The translations under genes and the position numbers were made by a program. From a virus (taxonomy: Duplodnaviria; Heunggongvirae; Uroviricota; Caudoviricetes), in IMG/VR virus record IMGVR_UViG_2585427777_000008, positions 1 to 63,513 of that record: a stretch of DNA of 63,513 nt; one strand, 5' to 3'. The first letter of the stretch is position 1. The number at the start of each line of letters is the position of its first letter. The notes beneath the pieces are model-generated. The model made no database searches, was not told the origin of the DNA, and worked only from the letters and a program-made list of their open reading frames with translations. Positions 2,880 through 57,067 of the stretch are shown here, piece after piece.

Positions 2880-2909
2880 TGTTAGATGAATGGAATTAAT
2901 TTTCTAATA
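2880..2909. promoter_or_regulatory. operator-like inverted pair TGTTAGA-N16-TCTAATA
   Basis: Member of the dispersed TTCTAACA motif family; sits directly upstream of the 2988 ORF. Confidence 0.4.
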
Positions 2910-2987
2910 TAACCAACTTTTTGCCAGTCTATACAGAAATAACATTCTCATTATCATCCCCTCGGTCATTTCCTGCCTGGGGGATTA

Positions 2988-3380
2988 ATGGAGCATATCA
3001 GCAGCGCAGAAATTGCGGATATCATGATTAGGGCTGACTGCTATCTGACAGTCACCGAAATCACCACTCTAGCTAAAGAAAAATATCCTCACCTTCATGT
3101 TTCACGCGTAAGTGTAACCAACATCATTCGGCATTTTGTGCGGTCAAGCCGAGCTATTTGTGAGCTTGATGATCGTGTTTACCCACGGAAATACTGGTTG
3201 CATGGCCTGAACGGATATCAGTTCAAGGTGCGCGGGCGCACGCCTGAATACGGTAGCTTACTGGTTAAAAACTGTAGCAGGAAATCAGTCGAACAGGCGC
3301 GAAAAGAGCAACGAGAGCTGGTGGACATGGCGAATAAGCTGTGGAATGCCGCCGTTAAAAAGCGTGGTGTTGCTTTATGA
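2988..3380 (+). CDS. hypothetical protein; candidate late-promoter activator by position (Lpa-like)
   Basis: 130-aa ORF immediately upstream of pacA, preceded by an operator-like motif, as for lpa in P1. Assignment is by synteny only. Confidence 0.4.
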   Translation: MEHISSAEIADIMIRADCYLTVTEITTLAKEKYPHLHVSRVSVTNIIRHFVRSSRAICELDDRVYPRKYWLHGLNGYQFKVRGRTPEYGSLLVKNCSRKSVEQARKEQRELVDMANKLWNAAVKKRGVAL

Positions 3381-4741
3381 GTCTGGTTAATTGGGAGGAG
3401 CACCGCGCCCGCTTTATAGCGTTGCGTGAAGAAAAAGGGATCACTGTAAAGGAATACTGTGAGGAGCATGGCCTTAGCTTCAATACAGCCAGAAAGCATC
3501 TCAATATGAAAAAAAATGAGGTGCGGTCGCAGGTAAAGACAACAAAAAAAAGCACCAAATCACCTGAAAAAAAACGGGCGGGAAGAGCAACAAAAAAGCT
3601 GGAAGAGGGTGCAGAAAAAACAAAATTTACAGAAATTGACAATTCGCAGGGTGCAGGTTCTTTCCGAAGTATGCCAAGAAAGAAAACTTCGGATCATGAC
3701 AATAATACCAATAATAACAATGAGATAAAAGAATCTGTCAGGAGATCATGGCGCAAAAAAATGGCAAAAATGACCCCCGCCGAAGATAAATGCGCTTCAA
3801 AAACCGAGGGATCTTCAGCAATGATCCCTGGCGGTGCTGTGCAGCGTGCCACGTTGCCCACTACGAGTGTGGCTCGCGACATGATGAAGAACGGCGCAGA
3901 AGAGCACCTGCGGTTAGCAATTCAAATGGCGCAAGAACGCGCACTTCAGTACCAAAGCATTGTTGATCAGGAGGCCGAACGCCTACAGGCGGAGATAGAC
4001 GCCCTGGGTGATCAGCAGCCAGAAGGAATGCACCCTGGGCAGCGACTGCTCGGTCTAATCAGTGACGCGGCCTACTACATGAACGATTTTATCAGTAGGT
4101 TGGCAGCGATATATCAGTCCGAACAAAAGCTGCGACAGGGTGATGAAAAACTTCGTCAGGGTGCTCGCCAGCAAGCATTCAGAGAGGCCGAGGCCAAAGA
4201 AAAACTCGAATTAGCACGCCTACAGGCCGAACAGCGTGGCAAAGAGATTGAATATCGCATTGGCGCTGACGCACGCGCAGCCAGAGTTATCGCCGCCGCT
4301 ATACGTATGCGTGAGCGCGAGGAGCTGGACGATATCGGTGTTGCTGAATACATCGAGCGTCAGGGTGTCAGTGTTCCGGCTATCCTCGCGGCGCGCGCGG
4401 CGAAAGCTATCACTCTTCTCGAGCCTCCAGTTTCTGACATCAATGATGTTGATGATGAACAGCTGGACAAAGAAGCGAAGGAGTTTGCATCGCTTCAGGC
4501 TAACCATCCGCAATGGCTGGCAGAGCGCCGGGCGGATGTGGCAACCATTGTTGAAGATCTGGGGTGCGGAGATTACGACCACAATGGCGAGCGTAAGGCT
4601 GGGGAATTCGAGGCCAACGACGAAGAGTTGGATATTGACCCTTCGGCTACGGCTGAAATTTACGGTGATTATGATGCATCAGACGCAGGATATGACGCCG
4701 GAGATGATGATATCGCGATAGAACCGCCGGAGGACGACTAA
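3377..4741 (+). CDS. pacA: terminase small subunit PacA-like
   Basis: 454 aa with an N-terminal HTH-like region, central charged coiled region and acidic C-terminal tail; overlaps pacB start (ATGA at 4738-4741). P1 PacA-like architecture. Confidence 0.7.
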   Translation: MSLVNWEEHRARFIALREEKGITVKEYCEEHGLSFNTARKHLNMKKNEVRSQVKTTKKSTKSPEKKRAGRATKKLEEGAEKTKFTEIDNSQGAGSFRSMPRKKTSDHDNNTNNNNEIKESVRRSWRKKMAKMTPAEDKCASKTEGSSAMIPGGAVQRATLPTTSVARDMMKNGAEEHLRLAIQMAQERALQYQSIVDQEAERLQAEIDALGDQQPEGMHPGQRLLGLISDAAYYMNDFISRLAAIYQSEQKLRQGDEKLRQGARQQAFREAEAKEKLELARLQAEQRGKEIEYRIGADARAARVIAAAIRMREREELDDIGVAEYIERQGVSVPAILAARAAKAITLLEPPVSDINDVDDEQLDKEAKEFASLQANHPQWLAERRADVATIVEDLGCGDYDHNGERKAGEFEANDEELDIDPSATAEIYGDYDASDAGYDAGDDDIAIEPPEDD

Positions 4742-6249
4742 TGGCTGGTGGGCGCAAGATTAAATGCGTCACCAGCGATCCACGCTGGCGCGATATGGTA
4801 ATCAAATACCGCTACAACTTTACCCAGGCTGTTGTTGATATTTTCGGGATGTTTCCCTCCCACCAGCAGCAGGAGATTATCCAGTCCGTACAGCAAAAAG
4901 GGAGCAGAACCACTGTTACTTCTGGTCACGGTACAGGGAAATCGTCGTTAACGGCTATGTTGTTGCTGATTTATTTGATTCTGTTCCCCGATGCCCGTGT
5001 CATCATTGTTGCTAACAAGATAGGCCAGGTTAAAACAGGCGTATTCAAATACGTTAAACAGTATTGGGCGAATGCAGTTAAGCGTCACGGATGGTTACAG
5101 ACCTATTTTGTCCTGTCTGACACCATGTTTTATGAACGTTCCCGCAAAGGGATCTGGGAAGTTCTCTGCAAAGGTTATCGACTCGGTAACGAAGAAGCAC
5201 TGGCGGGGGGGCACGCGGCACATTTGCTTCTAATTCTGGATGAAGCATCAGGTATATCTGATAAAGCGATCGGCGTAATGACTGGCGCTCTGACTGAAGA
5301 AGATAACCGAATGTTGATGCTATCCCAGCCAACAAGGCCAAGTGGTTATTTCTACGATTCGCACCATTCTCAAGCTAAAACCCCAGACAACCCGAAAGGG
5401 ATCTGGACAGCAATTGTTCTTAACTCAGAAGAATCACCGTTCGTCACACCACAATTCATCAGGCAGAAACTCCTGGAATATGGCGGGCGAGATTCTATTG
5501 AGTACATGGTAAAGGTGCTTGGTCAGTTCCCTAGGGAGATTAACGGCTATTTGCTTGGTCGTGATGAATGCGATCGCGCTGCGCGGCGCAAGGTGTTGTT
5601 GGAGAAAAACTGGGGATGGGTGGCTACTGCTGACGTTGGTAACGGGCGAGACAAGTCAGTTCTTAATATCTGTAAAGTGTCTGGTCACCGGGAAAAGCGG
5701 CGTGTTGTTAACTTTAAGGTAATGGAAATGCCAGGGACTATGGACCCGCTGGCTTTTGCTGACTTTATATACAACGAATGCACGCCGGATAAATACCCGA
5801 ATATTACAATCGCGGTTGACGCAGACGGTTTTGGTTCAGATACCTGTGCGCAGCTGGTGCGCCGTGGGGCTAATCCGGTACGGATTCGGTGGGGGAAACC
5901 CATGTTTTCGAACAAAGACAAGGAGCGTTTTGTTAACCAGCGTGCCTACGCAAATATTATGGCTCGTGATGCCATAAAGTCAGGTCGTATGCGAATAGAC
6001 AGCGACCCTAAAACGGCAGAGCAAGCGTCAAAAATCCCCTTTTTACTTAATGAAGAAGGGAAGATGGCGATGATGCGCAAGGAGCACATGCGGCAAAAGC
6101 TGAACATCAAATCACCTGACCGATGGGATACCTACTGCTTTACAATGCTGGTGGACTATGTTCCTGCTAATGAAGATATCGGCGCTGAAATGGCTACCTT
6201 CCGCGATCAGGTTCTTGCAGATGTAGAAATGCCAGATCTGGATATTTGA
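4741..6249 (+). CDS. pacB: terminase large subunit PacB-like
   Basis: 502 aa with Walker A (SGHGTGKSS), Walker B (LLILDEASG) and a C-terminal Asp-rich nuclease-like region (VDADGFG). Confidence 0.8.
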   Translation: MAGGRKIKCVTSDPRWRDMVIKYRYNFTQAVVDIFGMFPSHQQQEIIQSVQQKGSRTTVTSGHGTGKSSLTAMLLLIYLILFPDARVIIVANKIGQVKTGVFKYVKQYWANAVKRHGWLQTYFVLSDTMFYERSRKGIWEVLCKGYRLGNEEALAGGHAAHLLLILDEASGISDKAIGVMTGALTEEDNRMLMLSQPTRPSGYFYDSHHSQAKTPDNPKGIWTAIVLNSEESPFVTPQFIRQKLLEYGGRDSIEYMVKVLGQFPREINGYLLGRDECDRAARRKVLLEKNWGWVATADVGNGRDKSVLNICKVSGHREKRRVVNFKVMEMPGTMDPLAFADFIYNECTPDKYPNITIAVDADGFGSDTCAQLVRRGANPVRIRWGKPMFSNKDKERFVNQRAYANIMARDAIKSGRMRIDSDPKTAEQASKIPFLLNEEGKMAMMRKEHMRQKLNIKSPDRWDTYCFTMLVDYVPANEDIGAEMATFRDQVLADVEMPDLDI

Positions 6250-6294
6250 CATCCTCCACGCCCTGAAGGACGGGGTTTTACGGCGCACCGGATA

Positions 6295-6316
6295 AAGCCC
6301 CGGCAATGCGGGGCTT
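6295..6316. terminator. GC-rich hairpin between convergent pacB and c1-like genes
   Basis: AAGCCCCG-GCAATG-CGGGGCTT stem-loop in the 70-bp gap between two convergent stops; T-run is weak. Confidence 0.4.
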
Positions 6317-6320
6317 GTGA

Positions 6321-7358
6321 TTACCAGAGTTTAGCGGCGTGCTGTGTTTGGGAGAAAGTGAACCCGTAACGTTCTTCTATGGTTTTACCGTATCTTTTCC
6401 GCGCGTCTGTCAGTTTTATGCCTGTCAGGTCATCTCCGGATGTCATCATTACGTCTAACAACTCCAGATCCATTTTATTCAGTCTCGCCATCGCTTCGCG
6501 TGCTGTCTGTATTTTACGCTCAATGATATGGCGAATAGCCGGATCGGCTTCCTCAAGCATTTTGGCTGATTTGTTCTTTAAGCTCTCATTGCGGATGTCG
6601 ATGTTTCGCAAGATGTATGACTTCGCAACATAGCTTGGTTGGTGTTTCTCCAGATCGCGAACGCGATAGAGACTAAAGTCACCAAGCAGGCCGCAAGGTA
6701 TCGACTCAACCCCAGAATAAATAGTAATGCTGCGACGTTCGCCGACATTATTAACAACGGGCACTGTGGTGTTCGGAAGTTTTGCGAACACTAAGGCTCC
6801 GTGTGCGCCTACCCTGAATCGTGACAGAGCATTGCTGCCTTCAATGTTTGTTGTAAGCACTACATCTGTGTATCCATCTTTGCGCGCCCGGTAAACTTCC
6901 CCTTCAGGTTCTGATGCGAAAAAACGGCGCTCTTCTTCAAGTGCACCAACAATCTGCGAAAATATCTTGTTTTTCAGGCTTTTCTTTATAATTGCATCAT
7001 ATTTTTTGAGCAGATTTTCGCGCGTAAATGAGCGGGTGGTGGTCGCGCTTTGCACAACAATATGCGTGCTTTGATTTGTGTCCTCGATAATGAATGGGAT
7101 CGGAGAATATACAGACTCAACAATGTTAGACGCTTTGCCGTCAGCGTTACGGCACAAGTCAACAAAGGCTTTCCATTCTGTGAGGCACTTTTCAGCTTCT
7201 TCTAGCACATTCTGATCATGTGTTAGTGCAACATGGCGGAATTCCTCGCCGGCATAACTGGTATCATGGAAAACAGAGTTTGCGACCACCAGCTCTTTCC
7301 ACCGTGCAGCGGTTTGCAGGAACCGTTTGTACTCTTTCTCGATCGACTTCTTACTCAT
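6321..7358 (-). CDS. putative C1-like immunity repressor (assignment by position)
   Basis: 345-aa ORF between pacB and the rox site, transcribed away from rox as c1 is in P1; operator-like motifs lie in its upstream region. No motif-level confirmation. Confidence 0.4.
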   Translation of the reverse strand: MSKKSIEKEYKRFLQTAARWKELVVANSVFHDTSYAGEEFRHVALTHDQNVLEEAEKCLTEWKAFVDLCRNADGKASNIVESVYSPIPFIIEDTNQSTHIVVQSATTTRSFTRENLLKKYDAIIKKSLKNKIFSQIVGALEEERRFFASEPEGEVYRARKDGYTDVVLTTNIEGSNALSRFRVGAHGALVFAKLPNTTVPVVNNVGERRSITIYSGVESIPCGLLGDFSLYRVRDLEKHQPSYVAKSYILRNIDIRNESLKNKSAKMLEEADPAIRHIIERKIQTAREAMARLNKMDLELLDVMMTSGDDLTGIKLTDARKRYGKTIEERYGFTFSQTQHAAKLW

Positions 7359-7376
7359 TATTCCTACTCGATTTAG

Positions 7377-7386
7377 TTTTCTAACA
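7377..7386. promoter_or_regulatory. operator-like motif TTTTCTAACA
   Basis: 19 bp upstream of the c1-like start codon; dispersed motif family. Confidence 0.4.
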
Positions 7387-7461
7387 TAAAATTACTATGA
7401 CAAATCTATGCCGAATAACAGGGTGAGTAAAGGATCAAGATGTGTTTTTTTATCATCAAAT

Positions 7462-7471
7462 TTAGAAAATT
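7462..7471. promoter_or_regulatory. operator-like motif (inverted orientation, TTAGAAAATT)
   Basis: Second copy in the c1-like upstream region; a third copy (AATTTCTAAC, 7554-7563) overlaps the left arm of rox. Confidence 0.3.
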
Positions 7472-7559
7472 CCGCTTAAAAACTGCCTGGCATAACTTAA
7501 AGCCCACACCAGCAATGCATTGCCCATCTGCGCGGAAAGGAAAAAATTTCCTAAATTTC

Positions 7560-7591
7560 TAACTTTAAATAATTGGCATTATTTAAAGTTA
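7560..7591. other. rox: rox-type site-specific recombination site (Dre target)
   Basis: TAACTTTAAATAATTGGCATTATTTAAAGTTA: perfect 14-bp inverted arms around a 4-bp core; its reverse complement is the rox sequence described for phage D6. Lies 150 bp upstream of the recombinase gene. Confidence 0.85.
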
Positions 7592-7743
7592 GGCTATAAT
7601 CATGTGTAGATGAACAGTGTTGACATCACTGAAAATACGTGCCTCGAATCAAAGGCTTGTATTTTGAAAATTAACTTATAGCTACCCTGTCATTTTTATA
7701 TTTTTCGCGTAGCGTCATCTGTATATAGAGGTCAAATAGTTTC

Positions 7744-8772
7744 ATGAGTGAATTAATTATCTCTGGCAGTTCCGGTGGTTTTCTGCGCAACATTGGCAAA
7801 GAGTACCAGGAAGCCGCAGAAAACTTTATGCGGTTCATGAATGACCAGGGAGCTTATGCGCCGAATACTCTGCGCGACCTCCGTTTGGTGTTTCATTCCT
7901 GGGCGCGCTGGTGTCACGCTCGCCAGCTTGCCTGGTTTCCGATCTCACCAGAAATGGCCCGCGAGTATTTTCTTCAGCTGCATGATGCCGATCTGGCTTC
8001 GACCACCATTGATAAGCACTACGCCATGCTGAACATGCTGCTTTCGCATTGTGGCCTTCCACCACTTTCGGATGATAAAAGTGTTTCTCTGGCTATGCGG
8101 CGCATCCGGCGCGAAGCGGCAACTGAAAAAGGCGAACGAACAGGCCAGGCTATACCGCTGCGGTGGGACGATCTGAAACTGCTCGACGTCCTGCTGTCCA
8201 GGTCAGAACGGCTGGTGGATCTGCGCAACCGGGCTTTTCTCTTTGTTGCATACAATACGCTGATGCGTATGTCGGAAATCTCGCGTATTCGTGTAGGAGA
8301 TCTGGACCAAACAGGTGACACTGTCACGCTACATATTTCACACACGAAGACAATAACGACCGCCGCCGGGCTTGATAAGGTGCTTTCCCGTCGCACTACC
8401 GCTGTGCTGAATGACTGGCTGGATGTTTCCGGGCTTCGCGAACATCCTGACGCAGTGCTGTTCCCGCCGATACACCGTAGCAATAAGGCCAGGATCACGA
8501 CAACGCCCCTTACTGCACCTGCAATGGAGAAAATATTCAGCGACGCCTGGGTGTTGCTGAATAAAAGAGATGCTACGCCAAACAAAGGAAGATACCGGAC
8601 GTGGACCGGGCATAGTGCACGCGTCGGGGCCGCTATTGATATGGCTGAAAAGCAGGTGTCTATGGTGGAGATCATGCAGGAAGGAACCTGGAAGAAACCG
8701 GAAACACTTATGCGGTATCTTCGCCGTGGCGGCGTGTCTGTGGGGGCTAATAGCCGCCTGATGGACTCGTAA
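7744..8772 (+). CDS. dre: Cre-family tyrosine recombinase, Dre-like
   Basis: 342 aa colinear with Cre: conserved SLAMRRIRRE, AYNTLMRMSEI, GHSARVGAAIDMA and C-terminal Tyr region (ETLMRYLRR). Adjacent rox site. Confidence 0.9.
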   Translation: MSELIISGSSGGFLRNIGKEYQEAAENFMRFMNDQGAYAPNTLRDLRLVFHSWARWCHARQLAWFPISPEMAREYFLQLHDADLASTTIDKHYAMLNMLLSHCGLPPLSDDKSVSLAMRRIRREAATEKGERTGQAIPLRWDDLKLLDVLLSRSERLVDLRNRAFLFVAYNTLMRMSEISRIRVGDLDQTGDTVTLHISHTKTITTAAGLDKVLSRRTTAVLNDWLDVSGLREHPDAVLFPPIHRSNKARITTTPLTAPAMEKIFSDAWVLLNKRDATPNKGRYRTWTGHSARVGAAIDMAEKQVSMVEIMQEGTWKKPETLMRYLRRGGVSVGANSRLMDS

Positions 8773-8778
8773 ATTAAA

Positions 8779-8788
8779 TTTCTAACAC
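8779..8788. promoter_or_regulatory. operator-like motif TTTCTAACAC
   Basis: Immediately after the dre stop and upstream of the 8846 ORF. Confidence 0.35.
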
Positions 8789-8845
8789 ATCTTTTTAGAT
8801 TAACGCCTTTGCTGTAAAGTACCCTCGCCTATTTAGGAGGGTGCT

Positions 8846-9190
8846 TTGCAGAGTCAAATCACGGAATCAAGACGCTTCAAGGTGGATGGTTACACCGTAA
8901 CCTTCGCCGCTGGTGTTAAGAACAGTCATGCTGTCGTTGTGTTCGGCATCATGACCGGGCTTGAGGCCGTCCCTGTGTTTACCCTCGAAAAAAACTGGCG
9001 AAATCTGGAGGAAGCAGAAAGCTACGTCCGGAAAGTAACCATCATTGCCGCCGAAAAACTCCTGGCCCACTATCAGGAAAATTATCGCACTATGGTCGAG
9101 AAGATTAATCTCGCTTTCACTCGCCCCACTACCGGCTTTATTGCACCGGATACTAATGCAGGTCGATATCCGGCAAGGGGGCGTCGGTGA
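8846..9190 (+). CDS. hypothetical protein
   Basis: 114-aa ORF preceded by RBS-like GGAGG; overlaps the next ORF start. Confidence 0.4.
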   Translation: MQSQITESRRFKVDGYTVTFAAGVKNSHAVVVFGIMTGLEAVPVFTLEKNWRNLEEAESYVRKVTIIAAEKLLAHYQENYRTMVEKINLAFTRPTTGFIAPDTNAGRYPARGRR

Positions 9191-9663
9191 AAACTTATTA
9201 CCCATCTCTGAATTGTTACCCGTCTTCCTATCCAGAATTGTCCGGGAAGCTGTTAGCTCTATTAGCTAAAGCACCTACGGAATGGTTTAAGCCAGTCGTT
9301 ATCAATCCACACTTCCTGGATTACGGATCTGTTCGCACTCGTAACGAACTCAAAAACCTACTGGCGCATGGATTCATTCGACACCGTGCCGGGAAAGGCT
9401 ATCAGTTAGCGATTGCGCCAGACGAGGCCGTGCGGCTATTCGCATATCGTGACAGCCAGACAAAAGCTCGGGTAATAGCTCAAATACTTCATAACGGCAG
9501 CACCTATGCCCGCCAGTTTGGCGGCGACACGTCGCAGTTCTTGCGGGCGGTGCGATCGCTGGAGGAGCAAGGGGTTATTGAAAGTTCCTGTCTTCCTGTT
9601 CCTACCGTTCCACATATCAAACGTCGGGTTTACACCTTCACGCAGAGAGCTAAAAAACAATGA
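9187..9663 (+). CDS. hypothetical protein
   Basis: 158-aa ORF coupled to the flanking ORFs (overlapping stops and starts). Confidence 0.45.
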   Translation: MKTYYPSLNCYPSSYPELSGKLLALLAKAPTEWFKPVVINPHFLDYGSVRTRNELKNLLAHGFIRHRAGKGYQLAIAPDEAVRLFAYRDSQTKARVIAQILHNGSTYARQFGGDTSQFLRAVRSLEEQGVIESSCLPVPTVPHIKRRVYTFTQRAKKQ

Positions 9664-10154
9664 TTTACGTAAAAGTGAAACGCCTACATCCGGCAGCAAA
9701 ACTTCCAGCTTATGCCACCTCCGGATCGGCGGCGATGGATTTTGAGGCTGTTGAAATAAAACCATGCGTCGATAGCAATGGTGCAATTTCCTCAAGCTGG
9801 TGGGTGTATACCGGACTGGCTATGGAGATCCCGCCCGGCTGGTGTCTGAAACTCTATCCGCGATCCGGATTGGGCTGCAAAAAACATACTCGCCTGGCTA
9901 ACTGCGTAGGAATTATCGACTCCGATTATCGCGGTGAAATCATGGCAAAACTGATTACTGATCCCGGCGGGGAAGGCGTTTGTCTCAAGCCTGGAATGGC
10001 TGTCATGCAAGGCATTTTTGAGCGTGTTGAACAAGTCTCACTAGTCGAGGTTGAGGAACTCAACGAAACGGAACGTGGTGCTGGTGGCTTTGGTAGCACA
10101 TCGGAAGGCCACTTTGAAATTAAGCGTTCACCGCTTCAGTACGAAAAGTTATAA
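9660..10154 (+). CDS. dut: dUTP diphosphatase (dUTPase)
   Basis: 164 aa with trimeric-dUTPase motifs GIIDSDYRGEI and C-terminal RGAGGFGSTS. Confidence 0.85.
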   Translation: MIYVKVKRLHPAAKLPAYATSGSAAMDFEAVEIKPCVDSNGAISSSWWVYTGLAMEIPPGWCLKLYPRSGLGCKKHTRLANCVGIIDSDYRGEIMAKLITDPGGEGVCLKPGMAVMQGIFERVEQVSLVEVEELNETERGAGGFGSTSEGHFEIKRSPLQYEKL

Positions 10155-10168
10155 GCAGAGAAAAGACT

Positions 10169-10846
10169 ATGAATAACATGGCAACGAAAGAGCTTTTTAA
10201 GTTCCTTCCCAAATACAAAGCTCACAAAAACGTTAGTGCATCGAAAATCAAAAATGTTGTTATTTTCGGAGTAACTGATGCCCCACTTTGGGGCTGCATC
10301 GAACTCGTTGAACCAAAAGGGGCAACAGTTTGTGTTGACGCAATGTTTTTACAAAAACACCGACCAAAAACTGGCGGGTATCTGATCGTTTATGAAAACG
10401 GTTATCTGTTCTATGCCCCGGAGAAACCATTTGAGGAACGCTATGGCCTGGTTAACGACGCCTCCAAAAATGGAACCACGGTCATCATTACGGATGACAA
10501 CGGCGTGATGATTAATCTTACCGGGAGCGTAACTATTTCTGCTGGTGGCATCACCACCCAGCAAGAAGAAATCGACCTTGAAGCAGCCGACTTTTCTGAC
10601 GCGCTGATGTGGCTGAAGGATGGCAAGAAAGTTGCTCGACGCGGGTGGAACGGCGAAAACCAATTCTGCTGGCTGGTTCCTGAAGGACAGTACCCGGCAC
10701 GAATGGAAGCCATTAAGGGATATTTCCCCGGCGACCTCGTTCCGTATGGTGCTTATTTCGCCTTAAAAAATGCACAAGGTGTAGTTGTTCCGTGGGTTCC
10801 TTCTGTAGGCGACTTACTGGCATGTGACTGGTTTGTAGTGGAGTGA
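10169..10846 (+). CDS. hypothetical protein with DUF2829-like C-terminal region
   Basis: 225 aa; C-terminal segment (ALMWLKDGKKVARRGWNG...GAYFALKNAQGVVVPWVPS) resembles a phage-associated domain of unknown function. Confidence 0.45.
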   Translation: MNNMATKELFKFLPKYKAHKNVSASKIKNVVIFGVTDAPLWGCIELVEPKGATVCVDAMFLQKHRPKTGGYLIVYENGYLFYAPEKPFEERYGLVNDASKNGTTVIITDDNGVMINLTGSVTISAGGITTQQEEIDLEAADFSDALMWLKDGKKVARRGWNGENQFCWLVPEGQYPARMEAIKGYFPGDLVPYGAYFALKNAQGVVVPWVPSVGDLLACDWFVVE

Positions 10847-24549: not shown

Positions 24550-24643
24550 AATACTGACTGTTGCGCCCTGGCATTATCGTGGGGTATATTTCTACGGCAC
24601 CTTAGAAAAACGGGTGCCGGGATTGGAACCCCGGATAATGTCA

Positions 24644-24667
24644 AAGGCGACACAGACGCCGAAAGCG
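24644..24667 (+). terminator. rho-independent terminator
   Basis: AGACGC-CGAAA-GCGTCT hairpin followed by seven T residues. Confidence 0.65.
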
Positions 24668-24689
24668 TCTTTTTTTGTGTCACGCCATC

Positions 24690-24830
24690 GCACAGCCATA
24701 CGTAGCGTTTAGCTCAGAGATCAATGGTAGTGCTGGCTGGGCTGCCGAAAGGCAGGCCGGTTCCCTTTGACGCCGGTAGTTCCAACCCAGTCAGTGCTAC
24801 CGCCATTGAGATTGGAACCTCACGCGGTAG
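24690..24830 (+). ncRNA. candidate c4-like antisense immunity RNA (boundaries approximate)
   Basis: Structured non-coding stretch with a tRNA-like 5' part (GCGTTTAGCTCAG...) and a GNRA hairpin (CTGCC-GAAA-GGCAG). CCTTTGAC at 24755-24762 is complementary to GTCAAAGG at 24843-24850, which overlaps the Shine-Dalgarno of the icd-like ORF, and to an upstream copy at 24630-24637. Confidence 0.35.
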
Positions 24831-24861: not shown

Positions 24862-25077
24862 ATGGCTACTATCCCTACCCCAACTCATTCTGAATTTATC
24901 TGGCGTTTCTATTCCTGCCAAAAACACCTGTATATCTGCGTCATGGCTGCTACCGAAGCAGAGGCGCGCTCATACCTTCCCGAAGAACCCTGCATTTTTG
25001 CTGCTCGCTTCACTCTTGATGCGATGGAGATCCTCAATTACTGGAATCTGCCGATGAACTGCGTGGAGGTACACTGA
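24862..25077 (+). CDS. Icd-like small protein (by position)
   Basis: 71-aa ORF whose RBS is the candidate antisense target; its stop overlaps the antirepressor start (ATGA at 25074-25077). Confidence 0.4.
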   Translation: MATIPTPTHSEFIWRFYSCQKHLYICVMAATEAEARSYLPEEPCIFAARFTLDAMEILNYWNLPMNCVEVH

Positions 25078-26011: not shown

Positions 26012-26038
26012 GCCCCGGCCAGGTCGGGGCTTTAATTT
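26012..26038 (+). terminator. rho-independent terminator after the antirepressor gene
   Basis: GCCCCG-GCCAGGT-CGGGGC hairpin followed by TTTAATTT. Confidence 0.55.
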
Positions 26039-26039
26039 A

Positions 26040-26915
26040 CTAGTCCTGCTGACAATTCAGGAACATAAACGCACGTTTGTCCGTTAAATCCGTAACATAA
26101 TATTCACGAATACCATTCGGTTTTATGCGGCGAGCATACACAAACTTATGAACTGGCTGGTCGCTGCCATAACTAACCTCAGTGCGAAATTCATCGACCG
26201 TGCTACCATCCTTTTCTGTCTCTTTGCGTATCAGCTTATTGTTCAGAACTGGTTGAGTCTCATCCATTCCGCTAAATGCATCTTGCCCGGTACTATTACC
26301 CCGGTTGCCACGTGGTAAATCCCACGAGAAATAAGTCCCATAGTCTGTAATTACCTGATCCCACGCCCCGGCTTCATCCATATAATGACTACGCTTCCCT
26401 TGGTATGTTACGTCAACCTTACAGGAAAACGTTGGCGCGCTATTACTTGCAGCAGAGGCCGTTGAAGATTGTGTAACACTGCCATTGTTGGCATTTCCAT
26501 AGTTCCAGCCATCATGCAACGCTTTAACCCACAGATTAGTCAGGGATAGCGTAACATCATTCCCCAGCGCCTGGCTGATTCGAAGCCTCTGTATCCGACG
26601 CAACCCATACTCATAGGCTTCATCGTCATTAATCACTCGCCCACGTTGAGCGGCTACCACCCCAGATTGCCACGCACGATTAATTTCACGAATAAGATAT
26701 ACTTGTGGATCAACTCCGTATCTGTTGTATTCATAGTAAAGGCTCATTGCGCCATGTTGGCTCTGGTATTCATTAGCCCATGATATAACCGCGTTTCTTC
26801 CATAATCCGCGAGCGCAGAATGACTTGACAGAAGAAGAGCAACGCCAACAGTCTTCAGTAATTTGAATCGGAATAACTTTTTAATAATACGATTGGGAAA
26901 TATGTTTTTGCTCAC
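26040..26915 (-). CDS. secreted protein of unknown function (moron-like)
   Basis: 291 aa; basic N-terminus, hydrophobic core and ALA cleavage-like site (LLLSSHSALA-DYG). Opposite strand to both neighbours, with AT-rich flanks. Confidence 0.6.
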   Translation of the reverse strand: MSKNIFPNRIIKKLFRFKLLKTVGVALLLSSHSALADYGRNAVISWANEYQSQHGAMSLYYEYNRYGVDPQVYLIREINRAWQSGVVAAQRGRVINDDEAYEYGLRRIQRLRISQALGNDVTLSLTNLWVKALHDGWNYGNANNGSVTQSSTASAASNSAPTFSCKVDVTYQGKRSHYMDEAGAWDQVITDYGTYFSWDLPRGNRGNSTGQDAFSGMDETQPVLNNKLIRKETEKDGSTVDEFRTEVSYGSDQPVHKFVYARRIKPNGIREYYVTDLTDKRAFMFLNCQQD

Positions 26916-27143
26916 TTTTCAACCTTTCACCACAAATCAAGACCAACAACCCAATAATAATAACTAACCACTCTGTTTTTTTGATAAGCACCAAATCGTT
27001 TACAAAAAAAATAGCAAATGACTATTGACACTATTCTGGAAATCACAAACTGCACATAATCCATCGCGCTAACGGCTCCCGTTGAAGGTTCTTTTGACGA
27101 TTAACTTTCAGCCGAAGCGCGGTAGGGAGTCATAACGCCAAAG

Positions 27144-27167
27144 CAGGCCGCCATGTGCGGCCTTTTT
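27144..27167 (+). terminator. rho-independent terminator or attenuator upstream of the 27197 gene
   Basis: GGCCGC-CATGT-GCGGCC hairpin followed by TTTTTTT. Confidence 0.5.
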
Positions 27168-27196
27168 TTGTATCCGTCATCCGTGGAGGAAGGACA

Positions 27197-27850
27197 ATGG
27201 AAAAGATCGCAATATTCAGCCTGACCACCAGCAAGCCTCAAATGCTCACTGCAATACTGAAAGACGGTGCTCTCATTATTAACGAAGTAAAACCCCTTCC
27301 CGCGTCAGCATTGGAACAAAAGCAAAAAATTCCTCCAGCTATAGCAGCCCTGCGGAAAAGCAAATTTAAGGTGCTGGTTGACGAAATTACGCCAACGATC
27401 TCCGCTGGCACCGGAGCAAGCCAGGTAACACTCAAGACACGTCATGCCGACGGCAGAGCTGCGATCATCGTAGGGATGGAAAGATACAGAGAGCTAAAAC
27501 TCCAGAAGCTATTATCCCTGCCGCAAAATAACAAAGGTGCTTTCGAAATCCCCGACTCCATCGTTGACACCGAATACAACGGTAACGGAGAAGAAGTCTA
27601 CAGGGTGAACTGGCAGGATATCAGGCCGGAGCATATTCTGATGATCCTGTGTTGCTACGCGACCGTATACCACAACGTTGCCAGTGCAGATTACGTAGAG
27701 CAGATGACCGGCACAGTCGAGAAAGAGCAAAAAACAGGCATACTCGCTTCGTTCCTGTCCATTATTGGGCATGAAAAAGTTGAAGCAGGCACCTCCCAGC
27801 CAAAGTCACTGGCTGGGAAAGAAGTTGATGAAGATACCGTGATACTTTGA
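27197..27850 (+). CDS. hypothetical protein
   Basis: Start taken at MEKIAIF (RBS GGAGGAAGG) rather than the overlapping upstream ATG; 217 aa. Confidence 0.5.
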   Translation: MEKIAIFSLTTSKPQMLTAILKDGALIINEVKPLPASALEQKQKIPPAIAALRKSKFKVLVDEITPTISAGTGASQVTLKTRHADGRAAIIVGMERYRELKLQKLLSLPQNNKGAFEIPDSIVDTEYNGNGEEVYRVNWQDIRPEHILMILCCYATVYHNVASADYVEQMTGTVEKEQKTGILASFLSIIGHEKVEAGTSQPKSLAGKEVDEDTVIL

Positions 27851-28178: not shown

Positions 28179-28508
28179 ATGGGCTATAGCAGACTCGACG
28201 ATAGGTACATTGAAGACGATATTTTTCGTGCGCTGTTTCACCAGGAAATGATTAAGCGGGTATCGGAGTATCACTCTGATAATTTCCAGTACACGATAAA
28301 GATTGATGAAGTATATCGTTCAGACCTTGCAGCCTACAGGGCGTATGGCAATGCAGATTTGCGCTGGGTATTCCGGGTGCTGGTGGGCCATGAGTCAGAA
28401 ATGGAAGAAATGCCCGCCGGGACCACGTTAACTCTTCCTGATGTCGCATGGCTGAGGAACAAGATCCGTGATTACGCGAGCGCGGAACCGGAGATAGAAA
28501 ATGCCTGA
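28179..28508 (+). CDS. hypothetical protein
   Basis: 109-aa ORF; its stop overlaps the start of the next ORF. Confidence 0.5.
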   Translation: MGYSRLDDRYIEDDIFRALFHQEMIKRVSEYHSDNFQYTIKIDEVYRSDLAAYRAYGNADLRWVFRVLVGHESEMEEMPAGTTLTLPDVAWLRNKIRDYASAEPEIENA

Positions 28509-29697
28509 TTTCCTGAAAAACCAGGACGGGCGCTATATCACTGATGGCCTGTCCTCTAAGGACTTCACGCGTTTATTCGACCTTATCAGTAAAGAACAAA
28601 CCCGTAAGCGCCGACAAGCTCACCGGACGCTGACGCCCGGCAGACTGAGGAACAAATCCGCCGAAGATATTCTCAAGTTGGGGAAGAAGAAAGGCGGCAC
28701 GTTCTTTACGCGAGACGATCTGAAAGGCTTCGAAAAGCTACGGAGTAAAACGCGCGAAAAATATGACAGTAAGACGGCAGGCATCACATACGCCCAGCTG
28801 GTGGCATCCAGCCAGGCTATCGATATTAAGCGTGCAAATAACGCCGTGGATGACGGATCTGGTATCAAAAGAGCTACACCCGTATCTCTTCGCCACAATG
28901 TGATTAATATCCGCGTAGAAGCATCGGATATATCCGTCCACCAGCACCATATCGTCCGTATACGCTTTGAAGAATGGGATCAGATGGTCGATGACATCGC
29001 AGAAGACGATAAATCAGCTCTGAAAATCACTAAATCACTGTGCGCCGGGCGGGTGTCTTTCGATTGTGACTGTGGTCGTCATCAATACTGGTATCGTTAC
29101 ATCGCTACTGCGGGTAACTTTGCCTTGGCCCCGCCAAAAGAATACGCCTATCCAAAAGTTCGTAACCCTAAGCTACAAGGCGTCGCCTGTAAACACGTGA
29201 TCCACTCAATGACGCGGTTACAGTCCGCCAGTTGGCAAATGAGTATTGCTCGTGCGTTACAAAAGGCCGCAACGCAAATTGCATTTGGTGACGATCGCCG
29301 CCGTACAACTAAACACTTCTCAAAAGAAGACGAGAAGGAGTTTAATCGCAATCGTAGCAGTAAAACGAACGTTGAAGCCGCCAAACGCGAATGGAGGCTC
29401 TATCAGAAACGCCAGGCCGCTTTAAGCACAAAACTGGCAAAGGACAACGGGAAGATTGACAAGCTACGTGACCAGCTGACCAGGGCCAGAAAGTTGTCCG
29501 ATGCACAGAAAAAACGGGCAGCAGCAAAAGAAGCAGCCTTGCAACGTGAGAAACAGAAAAACAAGGAGCTTCAGCAACGCCTTGCCGATCAATTCGCACT
29601 GAAGAAGCAAGCGTTCATTGATGCACTGGTCATGGCAGGAACGTCACCTGAGCAAGCTGAAAAAATGTTTATGGAGTACGTGAAGAAAGGTTCTTGA
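28501..29697 (+). CDS. hypothetical protein with SWIM-like zinc-finger signature and basic coiled-coil C-terminus
   Basis: 398 aa; CxC...CxH pattern (FDCDCGRHQYW...GVACKHVIH) followed by a Lys/Arg/Gln/Glu-rich helical tail. Confidence 0.5.
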   Translation: MPDFLKNQDGRYITDGLSSKDFTRLFDLISKEQTRKRRQAHRTLTPGRLRNKSAEDILKLGKKKGGTFFTRDDLKGFEKLRSKTREKYDSKTAGITYAQLVASSQAIDIKRANNAVDDGSGIKRATPVSLRHNVINIRVEASDISVHQHHIVRIRFEEWDQMVDDIAEDDKSALKITKSLCAGRVSFDCDCGRHQYWYRYIATAGNFALAPPKEYAYPKVRNPKLQGVACKHVIHSMTRLQSASWQMSIARALQKAATQIAFGDDRRRTTKHFSKEDEKEFNRNRSSKTNVEAAKREWRLYQKRQAALSTKLAKDNGKIDKLRDQLTRARKLSDAQKKRAAAKEAALQREKQKNKELQQRLADQFALKKQAFIDALVMAGTSPEQAEKMFMEYVKKGS

Positions 29698-53323: not shown

Positions 53324-56300
53324 ATGGCGAGCACTCCATATGTCAAAAGCCCTGGAAGAAAAATACAAAGCTCAAGCCAGGAAACGTTGATCACCGCTGG
53401 CAAAAGAGAGGTTATTTTGAAAGAGAATAAAGACCGTATCGCAATAATTGACGCTATTCAGGGGGCGAGCACAAACGAACTTAAGGCTCTTGCTGAGATC
53501 AAAGACGCCATTCTCTCTGGGGCAAGCACCATAACTCAACAGGACGAAAGGCAAGGCAGAGTTAGCAACAGACTATCACGCAGGCGTAAAGACTACGAGC
53601 AAAGTACATCTGATAGCGTCAGAGATGCCCAAGCTAACCCATATAAAAAACGTCTCCCTGCTAAAAAGGAGAGGGCACCGATAAACCAAACCGTGGACCG
53701 CTCTATCGTTGCAACGAACACACCAGAAAGTGTTCGCTCCGTGCAATCACGTCAGACCATCCGAAAATTGGACGGTTTCATACCGGTAGCTGCTAATTCA
53801 GCCCCTCTTGAACCACAATCCCCCCAAAGTCTAAAAGGCCCGCTGCGGGATAGTAATGGACGTTTTGTATCCCAAAAAAGCAATGAGGATGTAGCCAGAA
53901 AAAAAGAATTGCAGAACGCACGTAAAGCCGACGCAAAATTACAAGCTGGCTTTCTCAGAAAGCTAGGTTCCATTATGGGGGTAGATGGCAATCAGTCTTC
54001 CAGTGAAGAGTCTTTAACAAATGCAGCTGGTGTCGGTGCTGGTGGGCCGTTATGGATGGCGGCTCGTGGCATGTACGACATAACTAAAGAGATCACAGGT
54101 AAAGCAGAATCTCTTAAAGAATGGGTAGAAAAGGGGAAAAAAGAAACATCAACCTCGAAAGCAATATCACCAGTAATTACTTATCCGGCGGCGGTGAATT
54201 CTCAAAAAGCAACATCTGCAAAAGCGTTCAATAACGCTGTTGAGACAAAATCCGCACAAGCAGTAGAAGAGCAAACCACAATCCTTCAGGCCAATGACAA
54301 CAAAATAATTGATGGTCTGGAAAATGTTTCTGACGAGATAGTTAAGCTTCGGAAATCAGTGTCTTCTGGAAATAAGTTCGGCTTAAGTGATCTCTGGAAA
54401 AATCGAGCAAGCAGAAGAAATAAAATCAATATTGGTGATCAAACGGAAAAAAATAAACGGAATAAATCGAAAAGGAAAGGCCGCAATCTTGGGAAAAAAG
54501 CACTCTCCGTTGGCGAAAAAGTTGCTGCCGGTAGTGCTGCAGCTGGCACTGGTGTCGGAGCAGCAAAAGTAGTTAAAAATAAGATCAGCAAACCCAAAGA
54601 TGTAAGCACTATCAGCGATACATCAAAGGGGATTGCAAAGGAAACAAAAAATACTGCTAAGGCCGTGAAGTCAGCTGGTGTTGTGGCTGAAGATGCCACC
54701 ATTAAAACCGGCGAAGCCATTGCAAAGAAAAAAACTGAATCTGTAGCCCTCAAAAGTGCTGCAAAAATAGGAGTTAAATCAGCAGCATCCACAGCGGCAA
54801 GAGCGGTCCCTATCATCGGTTCGCTGGCAATGGCTGGATATGACGCCATAGATGGTTACACAGATACAGAGGCGCAAAAGGCAGCCTTTGGTTTAAGTGA
54901 CGATGATGCTGTATCCGAACAGCAAAAAACGGCTTACGCAACAGCTAATGTGCTCGATATGGGGGGCTTGGTGTCGGGCGCAACAAACTTGATAGGGAAA
55001 GGAATTTCTGCGCTAGGATTTGAAAGAGCAGGTGAAAAACTTCAGAATTTTGATACCGGAGATATTGCTCGTGGTGTTAACGGCGCGGTAGATATCACCA
55101 AATCTGTTTTTGGTAGCCTTAAGGATACATTTTTATCCACTGACGAAAACACAAAACAAGTAAAAAAAGCTGTTGAAGACGGCACCAAAAAAACTGTCGA
55201 TGCGATTCATTCTTTAGGTGAGCAGCTACAAGGCGGGCGTGATGGTGAAGATGGTGTTGGTGAGCACGGGTATACTTCCCCGGCTGAATTTAATGCCCCT
55301 ACCAGCAACACCATTGCAGCGGATCTGAATATTGGTGGCAGCAACGCTAAAAACCGCAATTACCGGAATAATAATCTCGGCAACCTTGTTTTCGCTAATC
55401 AGGAAGGGGCGACGCTGGAAGCACCAAATGCAAAAGGTGAACAACGTTTTGCGCGATTTAACACGCCTGAAGAAGGGATCAGGGCGCTGGCAAACCAGGT
55501 GTCAAGCTATTACAACGGCACCAGCGCCGCTGCTGGGTATCAGAAGCTACAGACGGTATCCAGTATTATTTCCAAATGGGCACCCCCAAAGGAGAACAAT
55601 ACTAATCAATATATTGATAACGTCAGCAAATATCTTGGCGTCTCGCCTAATGAAAAAATAGACGTCAGCAACCCAGAGGTTATGACGCAATTAGTTCGTG
55701 CAATAGCGACGAAAGAAGGTGGAAACCCGGCGGTTAACAATGAGTACATAAAGAATGCTCTTGGGGCATTTAACACAAATACTGGTCGATGGGAGGGACA
55801 ATTCTCTGACGAAACATTGGCGCGGATTAATAAAATTCAGAAAGAAAATGGTGGTCAGCTAATTGCCCGCGATTCGCAATATAGTGTTGGTCGCAAGGTA
55901 AAATATGCTAATGGAAAATCTCCAGCTCAACCAGTTTTGAATGCCGTTCCGACAGCAACACAACAGCCAATTGAGGTTGCACAACATGCTCAGACAGTCA
56001 AAAAGCCACAAAAAACAGGCAATCAATCGCAACCGATTAATCCAGAGAATGTTGATGTTAATACTGGCTCGCCATCAAGTCTGCTTGAGAGATTAATCGC
56101 TATAAATGACAGCGGGGTAGGTAATTTATTTGGAGGTGCGGCTACCAGCATTGCTGGTACAAGCCTTGGCCTGATTAAGGATTTTGCGTCGGCGACTTCG
56201 TTTGGTTCTATATCTTCGCTTTCCGAAAAAGCGAAAGGAATGGATCAGGCTCTTACTGAAAAGATATCCAGCTTAACCGGTAAATCTTTTGGATTTCAAA

Positions 56301-57067
56301 AAGCAAGCCAGGTAACTGATATAAGAAACGCTTTACAAAAAAGACCAAAAACTGAACGCGATATGCCTTCAGTGGATCTTCTCTCCGGTGTTTCTTCGGC
56401 AAGTGAGAGTGAAAAAATCTCTGTAAACTCAAGGGAGATTCCAGTTTATGACAATGGATACAAGGTAATTGATGGTGAAGATAAGGGGGTGCTTGGCTCT
56501 TTGTTTGACTCGTCATTAACCGGTCTGAAACGTATTAGCTCTGCTGTGTTACCTGCAATTGGCGATAACGTTTCACAACTTATTGGTGGGGTAGATGGCA
56601 CTGGTATTGTTAATGATTTGGTTTATCAGGCTACTGGACAGAACTCAACAATTGCCAGGGCTATTAGCCCGCTTACCAGGAGCGCCGGTAGTTGGCTGAA
56701 TAATGGTATTCAACAAACCGCAGATAGCATTAGAGGTATATCAAACGAAGCCAATAATGCCATATTTGGCTCTGCGTCAGCCGTGCAAGAACCTTTTCTT
56801 GCTATGCCACCACAGCTTCCTACTGTAACAGATCTCGCACGAAGCGGAATAAGACAACCATTAACTACTGACACTATAAATAACGATCCTGCTATGTTGA
56901 AGGCGCTGGATAACATCTGCTCTATCCTGAACGATCTTCTGAATGTGAACAAGAACAATACAAAAGGCGATCCGGATAAGGTTGTCAAAACATCGCAGCC
57001 GCAACCGCGACCACGTGCTAGCACAACTATTAATGACCCGTCGCTGGATGCTCTGCTTGAGGATTAA
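53324..57067 (+). CDS. large tail protein, tape-measure / Sit-like
   Basis: 1247 aa; Lys-rich low-complexity N-terminal third, Ala/Gly-rich helical middle, and a conserved-looking segment (NNLGNLVFANQEG...TKEGGNP) that may be an enzymatic insert. Lies directly upstream of baseplate genes. Confidence 0.5.
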   Translation: MASTPYVKSPGRKIQSSSQETLITAGKREVILKENKDRIAIIDAIQGASTNELKALAEIKDAILSGASTITQQDERQGRVSNRLSRRRKDYEQSTSDSVRDAQANPYKKRLPAKKERAPINQTVDRSIVATNTPESVRSVQSRQTIRKLDGFIPVAANSAPLEPQSPQSLKGPLRDSNGRFVSQKSNEDVARKKELQNARKADAKLQAGFLRKLGSIMGVDGNQSSSEESLTNAAGVGAGGPLWMAARGMYDITKEITGKAESLKEWVEKGKKETSTSKAISPVITYPAAVNSQKATSAKAFNNAVETKSAQAVEEQTTILQANDNKIIDGLENVSDEIVKLRKSVSSGNKFGLSDLWKNRASRRNKINIGDQTEKNKRNKSKRKGRNLGKKALSVGEKVAAGSAAAGTGVGAAKVVKNKISKPKDVSTISDTSKGIAKETKNTAKAVKSAGVVAEDATIKTGEAIAKKKTESVALKSAAKIGVKSAASTAARAVPIIGSLAMAGYDAIDGYTDTEAQKAAFGLSDDDAVSEQQKTAYATANVLDMGGLVSGATNLIGKGISALGFERAGEKLQNFDTGDIARGVNGAVDITKSVFGSLKDTFLSTDENTKQVKKAVEDGTKKTVDAIHSLGEQLQGGRDGEDGVGEHGYTSPAEFNAPTSNTIAADLNIGGSNAKNRNYRNNNLGNLVFANQEGATLEAPNAKGEQRFARFNTPEEGIRALANQVSSYYNGTSAAAGYQKLQTVSSIISKWAPPKENNTNQYIDNVSKYLGVSPNEKIDVSNPEVMTQLVRAIATKEGGNPAVNNEYIKNALGAFNTNTGRWEGQFSDETLARINKIQKENGGQLIARDSQYSVGRKVKYANGKSPAQPVLNAVPTATQQPIEVAQHAQTVKKPQKTGNQSQPINPENVDVNTGSPSSLLERLIAINDSGVGNLFGGAATSIAGTSLGLIKDFASATSFGSISSLSEKAKGMDQALTEKISSLTGKSFGFQKASQVTDIRNALQKRPKTERDMPSVDLLSGVSSASESEKISVNSREIPVYDNGYKVIDGEDKGVLGSLFDSSLTGLKRISSAVLPAIGDNVSQLIGGVDGTGIVNDLVYQATGQNSTIARAISPLTRSAGSWLNNGIQQTADSIRGISNEANNAIFGSASAVQEPFLAMPPQLPTVTDLARSGIRQPLTTDTINNDPAMLKALDNICSILNDLLNVNKNNTKGDPDKVVKTSQPQPRPRASTTINDPSLDALLED

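Follow-up and report, generated by a model that had tools for sequence, protein, structure and literature searches.

A predicted periplasmic barrel protein with exchangeable N-terminal domains, encoded by an accessory cassette beside the immI region of a D6-like plasmid prophage and possibly acting in superinfection exclusion

The window, by which we mean the whole stretch of 63,513 nucleotides analyzed here, was found to be a D6-like (P1-related) plasmid prophage of Escherichia coli. Directly after the antirepressor gene ant, and thereby adjoining the immI region (C4 RNA, icd, ant), it carries a gene for a protein of 291 aa that is convergent to ant and divergent from the mat homologue. A previous sequence-only reading had described this gene as lying on the strand opposite to both its neighbors, and indeed, it is located on the minus strand while ant and mat are on the plus strand. 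The features of the locus are the following.

24597-24675: isrK-like RNA of the immI module, left of the ORF
24720-24807: C4 antisense RNA of the immI module, left of the ORF
24862..25077: icd, annotated in D6 and in NZ_AP027678
25077..26003, plus strand: ant, encoding a Rha/Ant-type antirepressor (PHROG 63 "anti-repressor Ant," E value of 3e-62; Pfam Phage_pRha)
26012..26030, plus strand: GC-rich hairpin between the convergent ant and ORF, 8 pairs of which 7 are G-C
26040..26915, minus strand: complete ORF of 291 aa, with a GTG start at 26913-26915 and the stop codon at 26040-26042
26043..26432, minus strand: conserved C-terminal "Y domain," aa 162-291, predicted antiparallel beta-barrel of ~130 aa
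26433..26489, minus strand: Ser/Ala/Asn-rich low-complexity linker, aa 143-161, where alleles exchange N-domains
26490..26807, minus strand: "type A" N-domain, aa 37-142, predicted all-helical bundle
26808..26915, minus strand: predicted Sec signal peptide, aa 1-36 (MSKNIFPNRIIKKLFRFKLLKTVGVALLLSSHSALA), predicted cleavage at ALA/DYG
26916..27024, minus strand: cassette-specific upstream region, AT-rich (~41% GC), with AAAGG and a weak promoter-like site
27197..27850, plus strand: mat homologue (D6 annotation)
28179..29697, plus strand: homologues of the P1 tail genes 26/25, right of mat

The GTG start is preceded, 7 nt upstream, by the Shine-Dalgarno-like sequence AAAGG (26923-26927), and an identical 291-aa protein has been called by PGAP on E. 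coli plasmids (P0001, with 43 member sequences; WP_236478011.1, a CDS in NZ_AP027678). Comparison of the window allele with the D6 allele over the C-terminal 130 codons gave a pS of 0.735, a pN of 0.118, and a dN/dS of 0.044. Since the synonymous sites are saturated at such a low dN/dS, the ORF is, by its pattern of substitution, a genuine protein-coding gene under strong purifying selection and not a chance ORF. The span originally delimited for it, 26012-26960, corresponds to the ORF together with the downstream hairpin and 45 nt upstream. The gene had also been proposed to be a lysogenic-conversion moron. Its stand-alone arrangement and its presence in some relatives with conserved flanks fit with this proposal, but an atypical base composition does not go along with them, the GC content of the ORF being 46 to 48% versus ~50% in ant and mat.

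The same reading had placed the gene between a terminator and an AT-rich promoter region, a description that needs two qualifications. The hairpin at 26012-26030 has a T-run tail (TTTAATTT) on the plus strand only, its continuation on the minus strand being AACAGTAATT. Because of this orientation of the T-run, the hairpin is, judged by its sequence, the intrinsic terminator of ant and for the ORF at best a weak stop. The upstream region is indeed AT-rich, but no sigma-70 promoter with at least 9 of 12 matching positions was found on the minus strand upstream of the ORF; the best promoter-like site matched at 8 of 12 (TCAAAA-16-TATTAT, minus strand, with the -10 element at 26957-26962). No match to the P1 C1 operator was detected in the whole window with up to 3 mismatches allowed. 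From position 27025 on, the window is 100% identical to D6. The sequence AAATGACTA, at 27016-27024, is the same as the -22 box annotated for P1 LPsit. We dropped the reading of this site as a late-promoter box, as one match is no more than chance would give (29 of 100 shuffles) and D6 lacks it.

The N terminus of the protein bears the signal peptide that had been noticed from the sequence. The rule-based Sec prediction relies on a positively charged start (6 K/R among residues 1 to 18), a hydrophobic core (around LLKTVGVALLLSS), and the following SALA/DYG, with small residues at positions -3 and -1. A comparable signal peptide is found in every relative, and the A-x-A/D-Y junction is kept in the alignment. 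The N terminus harbors no lipobox, and the mature part, which is hydrophilic (GRAVY of -0.75) and devoid of membrane-spanning segments, contains no further hydrophobic segment (highest KD19 of 0.52). Outer membrane barrels usually end in an aromatic residue; the C terminus of this protein is NCQQD, and its final residue is not aromatic. We infer that the product is a soluble periplasmic protein of ~29 kDa after removal of the 36-residue signal peptide.

The domain organization was derived from an AlphaFold model (mb1eebebf1f93) built on a 16-sequence alignment, with a mean pLDDT of 80.9; an earlier model, built on a 10-sequence alignment, had a mean pLDDT of 58 and was not used. In this model, mature residues from about 1 to 106 form a helical bundle (pLDDT of ~75 to 90), residues 109 to 122 are disordered (pLDDT below 50), and residues 126 to 254 form a ten-strand antiparallel barrel (pLDDT of ~90). 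The Y domain has two invariant cysteines, Cys165 in the first strand and Cys288 in the last one, three residues from the end, as well as an invariant loop motif, F-x6-G-x-R-G-x-S-T-G, that is kept in all relatives and reads YFSWDLPRGNRGNSTGQD in the window protein. No cysteine is present in the window N-domain. In a closed barrel, the first strand usually adjoins the last, so that a disulfide between Cys165 and Cys288 that clamps the modeled barrel is likely.

As modeled, the Y domain belongs to the calycin-like small barrels, and no homologue with a known function could be identified for it. Its matches to generic small-barrel folds have a sequence identity of 4 to 14%, and its likeness to calycin-type barrels (the Cap15 barrel, nitrobindin, FABP/CRABP, and PliC/MliC/PhiA) is one of general architecture only, with no Pfam or motif match. 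Foldseek, which had been suggested as a check, returned nothing significant in the PDB. Among predicted viral structures, two uncharacterized barrel proteins came closest, one from phage DIBBI of Xanthomonas (I3PGY4; E value of 7.8e-5, target TM of 0.60) and one from phage PS2 of Serratia (A0A023W4P5; E value of 1.8e-3, TM of 0.53), both with a probability of 1.00. They are single-domain proteins of 127 to 134 aa with 15 to 16% sequence identity to the window protein.

Neither the window protein nor D6 orf79 nor P0013, a Y protein that stands alone, had a match in Pfam, NCBIfam, or PADLOC, and profile searches against PDB sequences likewise gave none. The initial impression that no family could be assigned was thus essentially right, the only match being to PHROG 13054, whose function is unknown. 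The match (E value of 5.6e-83) places aa 143 to 291 on profile positions 127 to 275 of 276, that is, on the C-terminal half only, and does not extend into its SimB-like N-terminal portion. The two halves of PHROG 13054 are matched by different proteins, the N-half by P1 SimB and the C-half by both P0013 and the window protein. Homology of the window protein to a structural or housekeeping phage protein, which would be at odds with a moron, was looked for as well, and none was found.

PHROG 13054 is the family of D6 orf79 (YP_009914756.1), annotated as [quoted passage not shown] This gene resembles the window gene in its site and strand (from the ant side to mat), and its product has a signal peptide and the same cysteines and loop. 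The last 130 residues of the two proteins are 82% identical, and a BLASTP alignment that includes part of the linker gave 75% identity over 150 columns, with the N-halves unaligned. However, the N-domain of D6 orf79 is SimB-like and has two cysteines, whereas that of the window protein is helical, cysteine-free, and unrelated (hhalign probability of 0.1% between N_A of the window and the SimB-like N_B). The promoter and leader upstream of D6 orf79 also differ from those of the window gene, and D6 harbors, between ant and orf79, the extra genes pmgF and orf80, which are without counterpart in the window.

The N-half of D6 orf79 is 49 to 52% identical to P1 SimB (49% for residues 52 to 143). SimB has 111 aa and a signal peptide and is encoded between simA and simC beside c4. 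Elsewhere, the only form in which the SimB-like domain (PHROG 14329) turned up was that of a stand-alone protein of ~105 to 121 aa, and in one P1-like contig, a SimC-sized gene comes after the SimB-like gene, beside ant. In the window itself, no homologue of simA, simB, or simC was detected by tblastn. No similarity could be detected between the window protein and SimB, and aa 37 to 142 align with neither SimB nor orf79. BLASTP between SimC and the window protein gave nothing better than an E value of 12, tblastn of SimC on the window found nothing, and the hhalign probabilities for SimC did not exceed 0.3% with either the Y or the N_A profile. The idea of a function like that of P1 Sim, which had been raised from the sequence, therefore has indirect support, in that the D6 gene at this site combines a Y domain with a SimB-like N-domain, but none from any similarity of the window protein to SimB or SimC. 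As far as these comparisons go, the connection of the window protein with Sim is a domain in common with orf79, whose other domain is SimB-like.

At the level of the operon, the likeness to P1 sim consists in exported proteins encoded on a plasmid prophage by genes beside immI (c4, icd, ant). The arrangement differs, P1 sim lying upstream of c4 and divergent, whereas the window gene lies downstream of ant and is convergent. Furthermore, SimC gives a weak OB-fold-like signal, whereas the window Y domain is predicted to be a calycin-like barrel, and the role of SimB in the P1 annotation is only "putative accessory." The P1 sim gene was described in the 1980s, and no mechanism for its exclusion has, to our knowledge, been established since. 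Sim possibly prevents DNA injection by the superinfecting phage (PMC8546580), and the P1 sim genes are nonessential for lytic growth (PMC10695390). In D6-like prophages of Salmonella, a simB homologue occurs without simA and simC and has been regarded as a superinfection exclusion gene; its surroundings are among the regions that diverge between D6-like prophage variants (PMC6799933).

Between positions 25000 and 28000, the window is 95% identical to phage D6 with 63% of the length covered, while the segment 25900-27200 has full-length matches in three E. coli plasmids at 99.5 to 99.8% identity. The similarity of the window protein to D6 orf79 and to P0003 starts at the linker, and the Y domain of P0003, 90% identical to that of the window, is preceded by a SimB-like N-domain. 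Since P0003 has this Y allele with a different N-domain, N-domains have been swapped on a single Y allele, the linker being the place of the junction. Moreover, the synonymous sites are saturated and yet the backbones are near-identical, which argues that old alleles were moved in by recombination.

Other exported proteins are encoded at the same place. In NZ_CP029365, the same site and strand are occupied by two other signal-peptide genes, of 202 and 130 aa, whose products are found in 69 and 87 plasmid records, respectively. NZ_CP029365 and D6 have the upstream leader and the first dozen codons in common, and on a contig of 88 kb, the 202-aa gene lies immediately before a SimB-Y gene. By its gene content, the site next to mat is a hot spot for genes of exported proteins. 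All hhalign comparisons among N_A, N_B, the 202-aa and 130-aa proteins, the neighbors of the stand-alone Y genes, SimC, and Y gave probabilities below 4%. A by-eye likeness of the 130-aa cassette protein to the His-rich lipoproteins described below was not borne out (E value of 0.65). Taken at the level of gene order and alleles, it is well supported that the window gene is an exchangeable accessory cassette beside immI in D6-like plasmid prophages.

Across the relatives, the Y domain was found in four architectures. It stands alone behind a signal peptide in P0013, P0016, and P0017; it follows the helical type A N-domain in the window protein, P0002, P0008, P0011, and the Buttiauxella protein, the only ones to have this N-domain in common; it follows a SimB-like N-domain in D6 orf79, P0003 to P0007, P0009, and P0010; and it follows other N-terminal regions in P0014 and P0015. 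Members of the family are very few: 10 clusters came out of a word-indexed search of 5.8 billion proteins, 11 matches (clusters) out of a full HMM search of 1.84 billion representatives, and a single locus, in Buttiauxella massiliensis, out of a pattern scan of one genome per species (185,579). Among plasmids, 59 of 72,556 have a Y-domain gene, all of them E. coli or Salmonella replicons, and those among the matches listed (40) measure ~75 to 96 kb. Three of these plasmid records harbor the window allele versus 56 with the D6 allele. The mat flank is common to 121 plasmid records, 3 of which contain the complete window gene, and the window allele occurs in 5 of 5,426 complete E. coli genomes, where it is always plasmid-borne.

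Several relatives are encoded in other surroundings. The P0002 homologue lies 18 nt after ssb in a lydB/darA-domain/ssb block of a P1-like phage and may be cotranscribed with ssb, as judged from this spacing. Another relative sits on a ParM plasmid, and the Buttiauxella gene is located between a type I restriction-modification methylase gene and an integrase gene. Two of the stand-alone Y loci share a conserved cluster in which the Y protein is accompanied by a His-rich lipoprotein and a small membrane protein (E values of 3e-21 and 7e-32 between the loci). The P0016 cluster lies between a fimbrial operon and genes of metabolism, and the loci look chromosomal. These gene clusters suggest a general envelope role for the barrel and weaken a purely anti-phage reading.

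For the window protein, we tentatively favor a function as a periplasmic, Sim-like superinfection exclusion module, a reading that we hold to be the best of those considered while still not quite probable. The protein would be exported by the Sec pathway, lose its 36-residue signal peptide, and be soluble in the periplasm as a helical N-domain joined through a flexible linker to a barrel that is probably clamped by a disulfide. It would act in the envelope of the plasmid-carrying cell and block a superinfecting phage after adsorption, a task of the kind ascribed to P1 Sim. The conserved barrel would do the work common to all alleles or serve as their anchor, and the target would be set by the N-domain, which can be swapped and is of the helical type A in the window protein but SimB-like in D6. 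The sequences show well that the gene is genuine and under purifying selection, that its product has an export signal and is built of two domains, that N-domains are swapped, and that only some plasmids have the gene at this site; the periplasmic location, the disulfide, expression during lysogeny, and exclusion as the function are what we infer.

Several features of the sequences are consistent with exclusion. Every member has a signal peptide, a hydrophilic mature part, and the two invariant cysteines, and D6 orf79 joins, at the very same site, the Y domain to a SimB-like N-domain. The N-domain swap, the saturated synonymous sites within an identical backbone, and the other exported proteins at the site would together make up the signature of an arms race, and relatives occupy other variable spots of mobile elements. 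On the other hand, the window protein resembles neither SimB nor SimC, to which exclusion is credited, so that the link would pass through a third protein. No PADLOC defense model was matched, no recognizable promoter or repressor operator was seen in the sequence, the fold match of the model is generic, and stand-alone Y clusters near metabolic or fimbrial genes would be unlike phage defense.

Alternatively, the protein would benefit the host as a periplasmic factor for ligand binding or envelope homeostasis, a case of lysogenic conversion broadly understood, and would play no part in phage exclusion; the barrel would bind a small molecule, a lipid, or a metal, and the N-domain would be an accessory. 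We regard this as rather unlikely, yet as the most serious alternative. In its favor are the conserved neighbors of the stand-alone Y genes, which encode a small membrane protein and His-rich lipoproteins, and the metabolic and fimbrial genes around the P0016 cluster; an anionic ligand would also fit the invariant Gly-rich loop, in which Arg, Ser, and Thr are present. However, the fold matches are at 4 to 14% identity, with nothing significant in the PDB by Foldseek, and a pure housekeeping function would leave unexplained the swapping of N-domains, the placement beside immI, and the replacement by other exported proteins. The extreme rarity of the family (1 of 185,579 species genomes) also argues against a general envelope function.

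A small periplasmic barrel with a predicted disulfide and a strongly conserved exposed loop could also be an inhibitor of a periplasmic hydrolase (a lysozyme, a lytic transglycosylase, or a protease) in the manner of MliC, PliC, or PhiA, which would protect the cell wall or mediate exclusion. T4 Spackle and the gp5 lysozyme provide a precedent for the inhibition of a tail-associated enzyme. A predicted peptidoglycan hydrolase is moreover encoded beside immI in a D6-like prophage (PMC6799933). Nevertheless, we consider such an inhibitor improbable, as neither Pfam MliC nor any other inhibitor family was matched, the MliC motifs are missing, and PhiA ranked only 32nd among the generic barrel matches. 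Nor do the possible targets lend support to it: D6 pmgF and orf80, between ant and orf79, have no hydrolase signature and are missing from the window. A tail-associated transglycosylase was likewise dropped as a target, the candidate, a protein of 1,247 aa encoded at 53324..57067, having no Pfam match and no detected SLT domain.

Finally, a role in the lytic cycle (morphogenesis, an injected or virion-associated protein, or lysis) instead of in the lysogen is very unlikely, for although the gene adjoins mat and the homologues of the P1 tail genes 26/25, and the P0002 homologue follows ssb in the lydB/darA-domain/ssb block of a P1-like phage, the gene is missing from most D6-like plasmids with the same flanks and therefore cannot be essential for making virions, lies on the strand opposite to the neighboring late genes, has no structural PHROG annotation, and encodes a Sec-exported soluble protein, which is unusual among tailed-phage structural proteins. 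We thus rank superinfection exclusion first, followed by a ligand-binding or envelope factor, a hydrolase inhibitor, and a lytic role, and leave the remaining probability to explanations that we did not consider.

Going beyond this one protein, Y barrels with interchangeable N-domains may represent a new modular family for periplasmic anti-phage exclusion, in which SimB-type and type A domains would be the targeting modules; as a proposal drawn from domain arrangements, we put this forward as doubtful. If it is true, the window protein and P0003, which combine the same Y allele with different N-domains, would give a handle on the P1-type Sim mechanism. Phage-plasmids of the P1 family, which bear resistance genes, occur commonly in E. 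coli and Salmonella, and what decides their entry into a cell matters for their spread. The locus described here shows a SimB domain naturally fused to a conserved barrel and the same barrel carrying a different N-domain. Should the protein not act in phage exclusion, the gene would be an ordinary uncharacterized accessory gene of a plasmid prophage; should it do so, these natural domain swaps would represent a ready-made specificity experiment.

The site of the cassette gene, which encodes a predicted exported 291-aa protein between ant and mat, is occupied in many D6-like plasmids by two different proteins with signal peptides, one of 202 aa (PHROG 12786) and one of 130 aa (PHROG 13864). We compared the locus of one such plasmid with that of phage D6, whose orf79 lies at the same site and on the same strand:

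NZ_CP029365 (L014) 2868-3889, minus strand: genes for the 202-aa and 130-aa proteins
D6 (L001) 5899-6795, minus strand: orf79, the counterpart

On NZ_CP029365 there is not enough space for icd and ant. As annotated, D6 orf79 begins with VKLMVLGTALAA..., and it has the leader and the opening dozen codons in common with the 202-aa gene. Relatives such as P0003, which pairs a SimB-like N-domain with a Y allele close to that of the window, begin with MFFIKNGKRF. The D6 start may therefore have been annotated too far upstream, or it may represent a recombination scar.

On either side of the cassette gene, the following features were found in the window:

24597-24675, plus strand: isrK-like RNA (62.7 bits)
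24720-24807, plus strand: C4 antisense RNA (77.1 bits)
26927-27064, minus strand: 45-aa hydrophobic ORF, ending 11 nt 5' of the start codon of the cassette gene
27145-27163, plus strand: terminator-like hairpin, followed by T7, about 30 nt 5' of the mat start codon
29732-30454, minus strand: HigB-type toxin gene (Pfam HigB_toxin, E 5e-34) and HTH_3 antitoxin-like gene

The isrK-like RNA lies directly 5' of the C4 antisense RNA, followed by icd and ant, and this stretch constitutes the D6-like element's immI regulatory region. The 45-aa ORF starts within the backbone common to the window and D6, but in D6 the reading frame diverges. We saw no Shine-Dalgarno sequence for this ORF, and it is therefore probably not a gene.

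Between the cassette gene and mat, positions 27025-27196 (plus strand) are 100% identical to D6. Within this gap, 27061-27172 (plus strand) is predicted to fold into a long stem and the strong terminator-like hairpin, with a minimum free energy of -42.1 kcal/mol (z -3.06); an Rfam search gave no family match (best E 0.67). The structured stretch might act as an attenuating leader for mat, or it might be a small RNA.

Relatives of the cassette protein were also found in other settings:

L009 (Buttiauxella massiliensis NZ_LR722668) 2862-10283: type-A relative and two flanking genes
L003 (metagenomic contig) 4127-6438: stand-alone Y-domain cluster
L005 (metagenomic contig) 5078-6513: second instance of the cluster

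The B. massiliensis protein (270 aa), a full-length relative sharing the helical type-A N-domain, was the sole match among 185,579 species genomes. On one side of it is an 809-aa gene that by eye resembles the HsdM methylase of type I R-M systems, on the other a 472-aa tyrosine-integrase-like gene, and the locus looks like an integrative island carrying defence genes. The cluster, conserved in two unrelated metagenomic contigs, encodes a small membrane protein (134 aa in L003, 136 aa in L005), a His-rich lipoprotein (166 and 133 aa) and a stand-alone Y-domain protein; L003 encodes an additional, very His-rich 83-aa lipoprotein. No family could be assigned to any of these proteins. A metal-related role for this cluster is our guess. 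Finally, the 517-aa repeat protein P0018, recovered in the deep search, matches the Y profile four times (E 3e-7). The similarity is limited to a 24-residue piece of the profile (VVQDYGLNFGSDLP...), and is either a short common motif or a fortuitous hit on the strand-loop that is most strongly conserved.

Beyond the cassette region, the HigB/HTH_3 pair, whose genes adjoin each other right after the tail genes, is probably a plasmid addiction module. The 1247-aa ORF at 53324-57067 (plus strand) matched no Pfam model (E cut-off 0.001). In P1-like plasmids a transglycosylase (SLT) domain is seen in the large gene after pmgB. Should this ORF correspond to P1 Sit, the missing SLT domain would set the window apart from P1-like plasmids.
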